Positions 20,151 through 58,191 of a stretch of 64,000 nt of DNA are shown in pieces. The DNA is from Escherichia coli. Lineage in GTDB: Bacteria; Pseudomonadota; Gammaproteobacteria; Enterobacterales; Enterobacteriaceae. Under the pieces are notes generated by a model. It saw only the letters and a list, made by a program, of their open reading frames with translations, was not told where the DNA came from and made no database searches. Numbering within the stretch: position 1 is the first letter of the stretch; each line of letters begins with the position of its first letter. Both the position numbers and the translations under genes were made by a program. Location of the stretch: NCBI RefSeq assembly GCF_030013205.1, contig NZ_CP122648.1. One strand, written 5' to 3'.

Positions 20151-20427
20151 CGCTAAATAATACAGCAACCTTTAATAATCTTCTGATGAATAAAGATTAT
20201 CTCATATATTAATTTTATGAGATTTTTTTAGGATTATATCAAGGAGAAGAAACGAACTTATTAAGCTAGAATAGCCACGGGTGCTTGAGACTGTTTGTCT
20301 CAGGTATTCACCGAAAGGCAGACAGAGAAAAGCCCCACCTAACTATAAATCAAAGTGAGGCTACCCTATGCCTGAACACCATAAGGTTAGCCTCTTACTC
20401 GTTGGAAATCAACACAGGAGGCTGGGA

Positions 20428-20580
20428 ATGCCGCAGAAATATAGATTACTTTCTTTAATAGTGATTTGTTGCACGCTTTTATTTTTCACCTGGATGATAA
20501 GAGATTCACTGTGTGAATTGCATATTAAACAGGGGAGTTATGAGCTGGCGGCATTTTTAGCCTGCAATTTGAAAGAGTAA
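20428..20580 (+). CDS. hokA: Hok-family type I toxin
   Basis: 50-aa ORF MPQKYRLLSLIVICCTLLFFTWMIRDSLCELHIKQGSYELAAFLACNLKE with an in-frame upstream extension in the ORF-track entry 20368..20580. Confidence 0.8.
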   Translation: MPQKYRLLSLIVICCTLLFFTWMIRDSLCELHIKQGSYELAAFLACNLKE

Positions 20581-20712
20581 GAGTCTTCGGCGGGAAGTTA
20601 TTCCCGCCTTTCTTACGGCGTTGCGCATTCTCATTGCACCCAAATTTATTTTTCACAAAAATAATAATAGATTTTATTACGCGATCGATTATTTATTTCC
20701 TGAAAAACAAAT

Positions 20713-20740
20713 AAAAAAATCCCCGCCAAATGGCAGGGAT
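20713..20740 (-). terminator. Intrinsic terminator of cspA
   Basis: On minus strand: stem ccctgcca/ggcgggg followed by TTTTTTT. Confidence 0.55.
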
Positions 20741-20767
20741 CTTAGATTCTGTGCTTTTAAGCAGAGA

Positions 20768-20980
20768 TTACAGGCTGGTTACGTTACCAGCTGCCGGGCC
20801 TTTAGCGCCGCTTTCGATGGTGAAGGACACTTTCTGACCTTCGTCCAGAGATTTGTAACCATCGTTCTGGATAGCAGAGAAGTGTACGAACACGTCTTTA
20901 GAGCCATCGTCAGGAGTGATGAAGCCGAAGCCTTTGTCAGCGTTGAACCATTTTACGATACCAGTCATTTTACCGGACAT
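20768..20980 (-). CDS. cspA: Major cold shock protein CspA
   Basis: 70 aa, [21 protein letters not shown]... exact recognised sequence. Confidence 0.97.
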
Positions 20981-21200
20981 AGTGTATTACCTTTAATAAT
21001 TAAGTGTGCCTTTCGGCGATATGGCGTGCTTTACAGATTTTGAAGCGTTAAAGGAATGTGCACTACGAGGGGTATCAACGATAACTCTTGAAGGGACTTG
21101 CCTTACTACACTGCTTTAATGGTCTGTACGTCAAACCGTTGACGTGCATTAAGCCACGCATTGGCGGGTGATGCAACAATTATTTTTCATATTTATGATT
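20981..21200 (-). promoter_or_regulatory. cspA long 5' UTR (about 160 nt, cold-box) and promoter with AT-rich UP element
   Basis: Minus-strand sequence ACGGTTTGACGTACAGACCATTAAAGCAGTGTAGTAAGGCAAGTCC matches the known cspA leader start; upstream AT-rich tract. Confidence 0.7.
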
Positions 21201-32336: not shown

Positions 32337-32756
<420 letters not shown>

Positions 32757-55291: not shown

Positions 55292-55321
55292 TGAGGTTGG
55301 ATTGTGTTTGCTGGTGAGTTC

Positions 55322-55456
55322 GGGAGCAGCGTGCTCCCCTCACCCTAACCCTCTCCCCAAAGGGGCGAGGGGACTGTTTTGTGCGTGTTGAAACAACGAG
55401 TACCGCTTTTCCGTTCACTTTCTGGGTAGAGGGCCGGGGTGAGGGTGGCAGCCCGC
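55322..55456. repeat. GC-rich intergenic repeat (BoxC-like) with flanking hairpin
   Basis: cccctcaccctaaccctctccccaaaggggcgagggg at ~55336..55373 and partial inverted copy gggccggggtgagggtgg; family member repeated at 57102. Confidence 0.5.
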
Positions 55457-55463
55457 ACGATAC

Positions 55464-56786
55464 TTACAACGACTGATGTCGCGTCTCATGGGTCAGCAGC
55501 AGGGCGATTAACGTCAAGCCAGCCATCGCCGCCAGATATAACCCCACCGCACCTAACCCGTAGTTAGTCTGCAACCAGGCTGCGATATACGGCGCAACGG
55601 AAGCCCCGAGAATCGACGCTACGTTGTAAGAGAACGATGCTCCGGTGTAACGCACTTCTGTCGGGAACAGCTCTGGTAACAGCGCGCCCATCGGCCCGAA
55701 GGTCAGTCCCATCAGACTTAACCCCAGCAGCAGGAAGGCAAAAACCAGAATCGGGTTGCCAGAACCGAGTAGCGGGTTAAAGGCGAACAGCGCGAACAGG
55801 ATGATCAGCGTGGTGATGATTACCATGCTTTTACGGCGACCAAAGGCATCAGCCAGTAATCCGGCGACTGGTACCATCACGCCAAAACCAATCACTGCCA
55901 TCATCAGCATCCACAACACTTCGTTACGCGGCAGGCCAAGCCCAACTGGCGCGGCGGCGGTACTAAAGGTCATAGAGTAGACCGTCATGATGTAAAACAG
56001 CGTATAGGTTGCCAGCATGATGAAGGTACCGAGCACCGTGACGCGTACGTGTTTGGTCAGCAGCGTACCCAGCGGGATCTTCACCTGCTTTTTCGCTTTA
56101 GCGACTTTCTCAAACACCGGCGACTCATGCAGCGACACGCGAACATACAGGCCGATAATGACCAGCACCGCCGAGAAGATAAACGGCACACGCCAGCCCC
56201 AGCTCATAAACTGCTCGTCGGTCAGTAGCCAGGAAAGCAGCAAGAAAGTGCCGTTGGCAAAGAAGAAGCCAATCGGTGCGCCCAGCTGCGGGAAGGAGCC
56301 ATACAGTGCACGTTTGCGCGGTGGGGCGTTTTCAGTCGCCAGCAGCGCCGCGCCGCCCCATTCACCGCCTAAGCCCAGACCCTGACCAAATCGAGCCAGC
56401 GCCAGCAGCAGCGGGGCGAAAATACCAATCGTGGCATAGCCCGGCAGCAGACCAATCACCACGGTCGAAATCCCCATCGTTAGCAACGAGGCGACCAGCG
56501 TCGCTTTACGCCCAACGCGATCGCCAAAATGACCAAAAACGGCAGAGCCAATGGGGCGCGCGACGAAGGCGATGGCGAAGGTGGCGAGCGACTGGAGCGT
56601 TGCTGCCGTAGGATCGCCCTGCGGGAAGAAGATATGCGGAAACACAATAACGGCCGCAGTGGCGTAAATGTAAAAGTCGAAAAACTCAATGGCCGTGCCA
56701 ATGAGAGAGGCGACAAGGACTTTATTACGCGAGTTGATCGGCGTGTATTCTTGCTCGTGGTCGAGTGTTGTGGCTGTTGCTTGCAT
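55464..56786 (-). CDS. yhjE: MFS transporter YhjE
   Basis: 440 aa, 12 TM. Confidence 0.9.
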   Translation of the reverse strand: MQATATTLDHEQEYTPINSRNKVLVASLIGTAIEFFDFYIYATAAVIVFPHIFFPQGDPTAATLQSLATFAIAFVARPIGSAVFGHFGDRVGRKATLVASLLTMGISTVVIGLLPGYATIGIFAPLLLALARFGQGLGLGGEWGGAALLATENAPPRKRALYGSFPQLGAPIGFFFANGTFLLLSWLLTDEQFMSWGWRVPFIFSAVLVIIGLYVRVSLHESPVFEKVAKAKKQVKIPLGTLLTKHVRVTVLGTFIMLATYTLFYIMTVYSMTFSTAAAPVGLGLPRNEVLWMLMMAVIGFGVMVPVAGLLADAFGRRKSMVIITTLIILFALFAFNPLLGSGNPILVFAFLLLGLSLMGLTFGPMGALLPELFPTEVRYTGASFSYNVASILGASVAPYIAAWLQTNYGLGAVGLYLAAMAGLTLIALLLTHETRHQSL

Positions 56787-57101
56787 AATCTTTTCTTATT
56801 TTTTGGCTAACGAATAGCCATATTACGCACAGCAAAAGTGATATTTCAATGTGTAACAAATCGCGGAAATGGTCAAAAACCAGGCAAAAAGGGGATAATG
56901 TTTAGGCCAGTGATTTTTCTTCTATGAAATGCTTCACATAATTTTATAAATAGTGGATAAAACTGGTTTCAGGTTAAATAAAAGTTACCAACTGGATTTA
57001 TATGCTGGGGTTATGAGTTGGCATGAAATTGTTTGCTCCTGAAGAGATGTAGTTTCAGGTGGTTATGTGCATGTCATTGCCTGGCCTCTGGCTGGCTTGT
57101 T

Positions 57102-57140
57102 CCCCCTCACCCTAACCCTCTTCCCGAAGGGGCGAGGGGA
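57102..57140. repeat. Second copy of BoxC-like GC-rich repeat
   Basis: ccccctcaccctaaccctcttcccgaaggggcgagggga. Confidence 0.5.
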
Positions 57141-57177
57141 TCGACCGTGCGTTTATCAGGCATTATAAACCAATGAA

Positions 57178-58191
57178 TTACCGCTGCGTTTTCCCCGGCA
57201 TTCGCGGGTCGTCTTTATATTCGGCGGTGGCAATCCACGCCGCGCAAAACAGCGTCAAACGGGCGAAGAAGTAGAAAAACGCCATCAGCCCCAGCACGGA
57301 ACCAAATGCTGCGCCAGAGGGGGATTTCATCAGCGATGGCAGGGTGTAGGTCATCACGATTTTAATCACTTCAAAACCAATCGCAGCCAGAAATGTTCCA
57401 CGAATCAGGGCTTTTTTGCGCGGACGGTGGCGCGGCAACCGCCAGAAGATCCAGAAGAAAAGCAGATAGTTGGCGAAGATGGAAATCGCCAGGCCAATCA
57501 ACCGCCAAGTCGGTTTCAGCCACTCAATGCTGTTCAGGTGCAGGGCGCTAATAATCATTTGCTGCGCCGAACCGGCAACCGAGGTGATCGAAAGCGTCAC
57601 AATCAGCGCAATCAACAAACCAATCAGCGAAATAAAATCACGCAGATATTTTACCCAGAACTTCTCCTGATCTTGCGGCGAGCGTTCCCAGACATCGCGC
57701 GACTGGGCGCGAATCGCTTCACGCAGGTTACCCATCCAGTTGATGCCGGAATAAAGCGCCACCGCCAGGCCGACAAGCCCTACAGTCGTACGCTGCTGAA
57801 CGGCGGTGTTGATGGTGTTTTTCAACGTGGCGGCTAGCGTCGGATCGCTGATGTTTTGCAGAATTTTGTCGAAGATATCCTGTAGCAACATCGGATGGGA
57901 GGCCAGCACAAAGCCCCCTGCGGCAAACGACACCATCAAAATCGGGATCATCGACAAAAATGAGAAATAGGTGATAGCCGCACCAAACTGGTTACCCAGC
58001 CGATCGTTAAAGCGCTCTGTTGCGCGAATCAGGTGCGCAATAACCGGTTGGCGTTGGACTTTTTCGGCAGTGGTGGTGACGGTTTCCAGCGCCTGGCTAA
58101 CTTTGCCGCCTTTCTCGCTATTATCCAACTGCTTAATCGGCTCGTGCTCCAGATCCTGGGTGGGACGTTTGATCTCGTTTTCCTGCGTCAT
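57178..58191 (-). CDS. yhjD: Inner membrane protein YhjD
   Basis: 337 aa. Confidence 0.88.
   Translation of the reverse strand: MTQENEIKRPTQDLEHEPIKQLDNSEKGGKVSQALETVTTTAEKVQRQPVIAHLIRATERFNDRLGNQFGAAITYFSFLSMIPILMVSFAAGGFVLASHPMLLQDIFDKILQNISDPTLAATLKNTINTAVQQRTTVGLVGLAVALYSGINWMGNLREAIRAQSRDVWERSPQDQEKFWVKYLRDFISLIGLLIALIVTLSITSVAGSAQQMIISALHLNSIEWLKPTWRLIGLAISIFANYLLFFWIFWRLPRHRPRKKALIRGTFLAAIGFEVIKIVMTYTLPSLMKSPSGAAFGSVLGLMAFFYFFARLTLFCAAWIATAEYKDDPRMPGKTQR

Follow-up and report, generated by a model that had tools for sequence, protein, structure and literature searches.

Repeated motifs in the spacers flanking yhjE

The gene yhjE, which encodes an MFS transporter, lies between yhjG, with which it is convergent, and yhjD in a 64-kb stretch of Escherichia coli DNA, referred to below as the window. 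The gene names in the original prediction, which had been made from the sequence alone, agreed with the RefSeq annotation of E. coli K_EC180, whose genome was 100% identical to the window over the yhjG-yhjE-yhjD region. That prediction had described a GC-rich motif in the same orientation on both sides of yhjE, and the pair was readily recovered: the degenerate 36-mer CCCTCACCCTAACCCTCTYCCCRAAGGGGCGAGGGG had exact matches on the + strand at 55337-55372 and 57104-57139, and no further site was detected in the 64-kb window at ≤3 mismatches. Extension of these matches produced a 38-nt direct repeat (the left and right copies in Table 1) with 36 of 38 positions identical (95%) and a spacing of 1767 nt. 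Chance similarity within GC-rich intergenic DNA can be dismissed as the source of this resemblance, given that 100 dinucleotide-preserving shuffles contained 0 matches to the motif at ≤3 mismatches and that thousands of homologous copies exist across genomes.

The partial inverted copy described beside the left repeat was also real. A repeat search detected inverted arms at 55332-55359 and 55423-55450 that were 79% complementary, and the core CCCTCACCCCGGCCCTCT was present on the - strand at 55428-55445, with 0 occurrences expected by chance. The sites had been placed correctly, apart from an offset of at most 1 base in the right copy and of a few bases in the partial one. A gap of 44 nt separated the yhjG stop codon from the left copy. 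The right copy followed the stop codon of yhjD at a distance of 37 nt, with the start codon of yhjE 316 nt downstream of it. The left and the inverted partial copies, together with the 51 nt between them, formed a composite palindrome that occupied most of the spacer between yhjG and yhjE.

Table 1. Positions of the repeats and neighbouring genes in the window
Feature	Position	Strand	Basis
Left BoxC/PIT/TM_ECO copy, intact, type A 'mm'	55336..55373	-	Exact consensus match, 55337-55371
Truncated type B copy	55425..55445	+	One mismatch to GGGNGAGGGNNNGGGNGAGGG
Composite imperfect palindrome, 119 nt	55332..55450	.	Inverted repeat; RNA and DNA folds
Right BoxC copy, type A, slightly degenerate	57103..57140	-	One mismatch, two-G-block consensus
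Extended BoxC unit round the right copy	57089..57152	-	Alignment with copies at other E. coli loci
yhjE (MFS transporter), bracketed gene, outside the repeat	55464..56786	-	ORF list and RefSeq annotation
yhjG	ends 55291	+	RefSeq annotation of K_EC180
yhjD	57178-58191	-	RefSeq annotation of K_EC180

Assignment of the copies to the BoxC/PIT/TM_ECO family

A single interspersed repeat of enterobacteria has been given three names: BoxC (Bergler 1992), PIT (Hoyne/Maher 2000), which stands for potential intrastrand triplex element (Hoyne et al. 2000), and TM_ECO (Holder 2015) (PMC4666352). The TM_ECO consensus is 5'-CCCTCNCCC-N3-6-GGGNGAGGG-N3-GGGNGAGGG-3' (Holder et al. 2015, PMC4666352). The left copy, which reads TCCCCTCGCCCCTTTGGGGAGAGGGTTAGGGTGAGGGG on the - strand, fitted this consensus exactly. 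Its loop 2 was TTA, as in type A, it carried the usual single mismatch ('mm'), and its sequence was that of the 'type A mm' oligonucleotide of PMC4666352, a four-G-to-C mutant of which was the control oligonucleotide in the same study. The right and partial copies each had 1 mismatch in the two-G-block part of the consensus. In the right copy, which was also of type A, block 2 was GGAAGAGGG in place of GGGAGAGGG, and this one extra substitution caused it to fail the strict consensus pattern. The partial copy retained blocks 2 and 3, as GGTAGAGGG CCG GGGTGAGGG, and had lost block 1; the CCG of its loop 2 was that of type B. Types A and B of TM_ECO are found as inverted pairs (PMC4666352), and the left site exhibited this inverted A+B pairing.

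Copies from the gldA-yijF, entC-fepB, ytfR-ytfQ, ygfF-gcvP and flgG-flgF spacers aligned over the 38-mer and its flanks. In this five-spacer alignment, the shared sequence extended beyond the 38-mer by ~12 nt upstream (GCTGGCCTGTT) and included GxGC a few bases downstream; around the right copy, an upstream GCTGGCTTGTT and a downstream GTGCG were common to copies at other E. coli loci. The resulting aligned unit of ~50-56 bp agreed with older descriptions of BoxC, in which its length is put at 50-56 bp (PMC2267715).

No match at the gathering score was obtained at the copies with the Rfam 15 covariance models, and the sub-threshold hits, to eukaryotic miRNA and frameshift models, were at chance level (E values of 0.13 to 0.29). 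Elsewhere in the window, gathering-score hits (20279-21140, 32337-32749, 40725-41756 and 1487-1529) included the cspA thermoregulator and a sok antitoxin RNA. Further hits were to a tRNA followed by two RtT repeats, to three rdlD antitoxin RNAs (ldr/rdl cluster) and to the ES036 sRNA; all were ordinary for that part of the E. coli chromosome.

As judged from sequence, the three motifs are assigned as copies of the known BoxC/PIT/TM_ECO repeat, one intact, one slightly degenerate and one truncated. They shared with it the consensus, the A (TTA) and B (CCG) loops, the 'mm' form and the inverted A+B pairing, as well as an intergenic location, a similar copy number and a variability that takes the form of local indels. 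The element is an already known one, having been described since 1992 and characterised biophysically and comparatively between 2000 and 2015. The label 'BoxC-like' in the original prediction was therefore apt, since the published consensus was matched and the family is dispersed and multi-copy in E. coli.

Copy number and wider distribution

For K-12, 23 copies of the repeat have been tabulated, within a reported range of 23-32 (PMC4666352). Using 51 nt around the left copy as a blastn query against 5426 complete E. coli genomes, the family was detected in 5407, with 1 to 29 places in each (median 15). None of the 30 listed hits was overlapped by an annotated feature, and these hits were intergenic. 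The family size is ~15-25 copies per E. coli genome. This genome-wide search established that the motif is widespread and that the two copies flanking yhjE are related. Plasmids accounted for 46 of the 76538 places across all genomes. A perfect BoxC core was also observed between flgG and flgF on p94_0962-1 (NZ_CP074792.1), a 155-kb record that is annotated as a plasmid and carries flagellar genes.

When the strict consensus was run against representative genomes, the matches listed included more than 100 loci of Mitsuaria chitosanitabida and others in Methylomirabilota, Contendobacter and unclassified metagenome-assembled genomes (MAGs); they come from four assemblies, do not amount to a census and include no E. 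coli representative. Among the matches listed, the three blocks were the same as in E. coli, copy number was very high and the loops were lineage specific (GCTTGC in Mitsuaria). The N of block 1 alternated between T and G in Mitsuaria as it does in E. coli. The motifs of these distant bacteria, among the matches listed, were often in inverted pairs 80-300 nt apart. The wide taxonomic occurrence agrees with the report of the motif from >260 prokaryotes (PMC4666352).

Allelic variation of the two spacers

An alignment of both yhjE-flanking spacers (55292-55463 and 57062-57180 in the window) from eight strains detected a dimorphism at each site, with a BoxC allele and a non-homologous REP/BIME allele. 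The BoxC form of the yhjG-yhjE spacer was found in the window and, with a complete A+B pair, in STEC346. The REP form, found in MG1655, Nissle 1917 and others, had two REP units after a short hairpin. In UTI89 this spacer was only 40 nt long and contained the hairpin alone (GCCGGATGTCTGACATCCGGC), which may be the minimal or ancestral state; a 40-nt spacer was typical of B2-type or UTI89-like (~94% identity) genomes. The distal half of the yhjE-yhjD spacer contained either a single BoxC (window, CUVET16-394 and AF57) or a BIME (MG1655, STEC346, UTI89 and others). YhjD ended (positions 57178-57183 in the window) in Arg alongside the BoxC allele (WP_000191259.1) but in Pro alongside the REP allele (WP_000191257.1), and this tracking of the last codon with the spacer allele indicated that the allelic replacement extends into the coding sequence.

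REP/BIME (PU) elements resemble BoxC in being short, GC rich, hairpin forming and intergenic, in following stop codons and in occupying the same two spacers, but they are an unrelated sequence family (GCCGGATGCGGCG...). No REP consensus (a palindromic unit of the GCCGGATGCGGCG...CGCCTTATCCGGCCTAC kind) was present in the spacers of the window, REPs being found only in the alleles of other strains. REP elements protect mRNA 3' ends, bind gyrase and IHF, and are mobilised by RAYTs; to our knowledge, none of these roles has been shown for BoxC.

Of the 5426 genomes, allele-specific queries detected the left BoxC allele in 1599 and the right one in 599, the left-site BoxC being absent from ~70% of strains and the right-site BoxC from ~89%. 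All four left/right combinations occurred. Both BoxC alleles were present together in at least 60 genomes, and inspection of haplotypes at 60 evenly spaced ranks found 2 with both BoxC alleles, 16 with the left only, 5 with the right only and 36 with neither. The haplotype in which BoxC brackets yhjE was thus present in roughly 2-3% of genomes, near the expectation for independent assortment. K-12 MG1655 had REP alleles at both sites, which places the copies described here outside the 23 tabulated for that strain. When yhjE, yhjD and yhjG were looked for in the supplements of PMC4666352, none was found; the absence of these loci from the K-12 table and supplements of that study is explained by K-12 carrying REP at both sites.

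Relative to STEC346, the window lacked 61 nt between two CTTTC(T/A)GGG motifs, which constitute a microhomology. This deletion removed block 1 of the type B copy and left the long imperfect palindrome. The STEC346 spacer itself contained a complete type B copy and an internal partial duplicate of that copy. From the arrangement of the sequence, the loss of the 61 nt would be consistent with replication slippage. A 'palindrome effect' has been described for inverted TM_ECO pairs (PMC4666352), and the 61-nt deletion within the inverted A+B pair matches the effect of Holder et al. Overall, comparison of the yhjG-yhjE-yhjD region among strains detected dimorphic spacers and no large rearrangement of yhjE.

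These alleles bear on whether BoxC moves, or once moved, as a non-autonomous element, either in the manner of a MITE or, like REP, through a structure-specific enzyme supplied in trans, with the two copies being independent insertions. Mobility of this kind would account for near-identical dispersed copies with conserved units of ~50 nt, for a per-genome copy number that varies from 1 to 29 and for the occurrence of the same three-block architecture, at high copy and with lineage-specific loops, in the unrelated Mitsuaria, a Methylomirabilota MAG and a Contendobacter MAG. However, in the eight strains the alternative allele at both sites was a non-homologous spacer and not an empty site, so that simple insertion into either of the other forms, REP or minimal, does not account for the BoxC allele. 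Furthermore, neither terminal inverted repeats nor target-site duplications were visible in a seven-copy alignment, and no link to transposons, phages or plasmids was found by Holder et al. (PMC4666352). Independent insertion of a mobile element was consequently considered quite unlikely. We know of no enzyme that is a candidate for moving BoxC. Another account, which we regard as very unlikely, is that BoxC and REP are 3'-end modules of interchangeable function, exchanged as whole spacers among E. coli lineages, or that BoxC is an element defined by its structure and spread by a trans-acting enzyme; an enzyme of this type would fit the finding of the same blocks, lineage-specific loops and the T/G choice in E. 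coli, Mitsuaria and Methylomirabilota.

Search for deletion or duplication of yhjE

Two like-oriented repeats that match at 36/38 positions, with a spacing of 1767 nt, could serve as a recombination substrate by which the intervening gene is deleted or tandemly duplicated. This possibility had been raised in the original prediction, and Holder et al. (PMC4666352) mention that TM_ECO sites far apart could, in principle, recombine. The population data argued against it. The yhjE gene was present in 5422 of the 5426 genomes, essentially always as a single copy. Synthetic queries for the junction expected from a BoxC × BoxC deletion and for the junction expected from a tandem duplication of yhjE each detected 0 of 5426 genomes at ≥80% coverage. 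The longest uninterrupted identity between the two copies was only 19 nt (19+1+3+1+14). The minimum efficient processing segment for RecA-dependent recombination in E. coli is roughly 23-27 bp, and hence the perfect identity between the copies falls below the length for efficient RecA-dependent exchange. Moreover, the opportunity is restricted to the few genomes (~2-3%) that have both copies. Deletion or duplication of yhjE through this pair was accordingly judged to be highly improbable and is already largely refuted at the population level.

Folding of the repeats and transcription termination

The repeats had also been proposed to form stable hairpins and to act as terminators or mRNA stabilisers. 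Hairpins were indeed predicted. For single copies, the RNA hairpins had energies of -18.6 to -24.5 kcal/mol (z scores of -0.4 to -1.9 versus shuffles) and the DNA folds had energies of ~-8 to -9 kcal/mol (z scores of -0.6 to -1.4). An exceptional stability of single copies was rejected, as both the RNA and the DNA energies were within the range of shuffled sequences. In these models, the C block (block 1) paired equally well with either G block, which would be a signature of a triplex rather than of a dedicated hairpin. Only the 119-nt palindrome folded clearly better than shuffled sequence: the predicted RNA fold of 55320-55465 was -69.7 kcal/mol for the + strand and -64.7 kcal/mol for the - strand (z scores of -3.98 and -3.75, respectively), and the DNA fold of the palindrome was -24.3 kcal/mol (z score of -2.3).

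A terminator scan detected no terminator-like site at either copy on either strand. Neither hairpin was followed by a T tract, the + strand continuing with ACTGTTTTGTG and ATCGACCGTG and the - strand having no T run. The lack of a T/U tract and the empty consensus scan spoke against a rho-independent terminator at either copy. As cited in PMC4666352, Hoyne & Maher (2002) found neither promoter nor terminator activity for these elements. Of the proposal made in the original prediction, the hairpins stood, at a stability no better than that of shuffled sequence for single copies, and termination was supported by neither a site nor an activity.

A broader form of this proposal is that the BoxC copies are RNA 3'-end structures, either terminators or exonuclease barriers, and the functional equivalents of the REP elements at the same sites. 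Their location after the stop codons of yhjG and yhjD (44 and 37 nt, respectively) and 13-18 nt from that of yhjE would suit such a role, as would the hairpin and REP/BIME content of the alternative alleles in these positions and the predicted fold of the composite palindrome on both strands (-65 to -70 kcal/mol; z of ~-4). From this fold, the palindrome may act as a modest 3' barrier between the transcripts of yhjG and yhjE, which converge, and such a barrier may parallel the REP and hairpin content of the alternative alleles. Against an RNA-level role, neither copy had a T/U tract or a terminator-like site, single copies folded no better than shuffles (z of -0.4 to -1.9), no Rfam family was matched and the published assays, as cited in PMC4666352, were without terminator or promoter activity. 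In addition, BoxC is missing from the left site in ~70% of strains and from the right site in ~89%, and B2-type strains manage with a 40-nt yhjG-yhjE spacer. On balance, a function for the copies as RNA 3'-end structures appeared unlikely.

Potential triplex formation and a proposed origin of the local variation

As an isolated oligonucleotide, the G-rich strand of TM_ECO forms a stable class II purine-motif intrastrand triplex with a Tm of 70-82 C, and the oligonucleotide identical to the left copy folds with a Tm of 74 C as determined by CD/NMR (PMC4666352). By simple base-triad rules, 8 of 9 purine-motif triads were intact in the left copy and 7 of 9 in the right copy. BoxC is similar to the mirror repeats of H-DNA, or intramolecular triplexes, in that a purine-rich block accepts a third strand and in its association with polymerase stalling and genetic instability. 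It differs from H-DNA in that one strand, with its three consecutive blocks, suffices and in that the stems are of 9 nt; moreover, the triplex was detected neither in duplex DNA nor by in vivo DMS footprinting (PMC4666352). TM_ECO loci differ more between strains than control spacers do, and small intergenic changes account for most of this excess (PMC4666352).

Our preferred interpretation, which we hold to be highly likely, is that the copies flanking yhjE belong to a known repeat whose transient folding gives rise to local indels, that they have no dedicated role at yhjE and that the bracketing of this gene is coincidental. In the duplex state, the BoxC copies would be inert. When transiently single stranded during replication or repair, the C block and the two G blocks could fold into alternative hairpins or a triplex, and this folding would lead to polymerase stalling and local slippage with the production of small indels, such as the 61-nt deletion in the type B copy. 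The copies would have no dedicated role in the expression of yhjE, and the bracketing would be a coincidence of two independent spacer polymorphisms that occur together in ~2-3% of strains. We infer the step from a transient non-B structure to slippage; Holder et al. saw no triplex in vivo. The variability of these spacers may also reflect a tolerance of change at the 3' ends of genes and not a property of BoxC, as the REP alleles of the same sites are equally 'variable'.

The gain from this analysis is locus specific and modest, and consists of a BoxC/REP dimorphism at both yhjE spacers, documented in 5426 complete genomes and in all four combinations. For the family as a whole, the absence of yhjE deletions and duplications is a small negative data point against BoxC driving large rearrangements, and the lack of a large rearrangement at yhjE is consistent with the published link of BoxC to small local indels.
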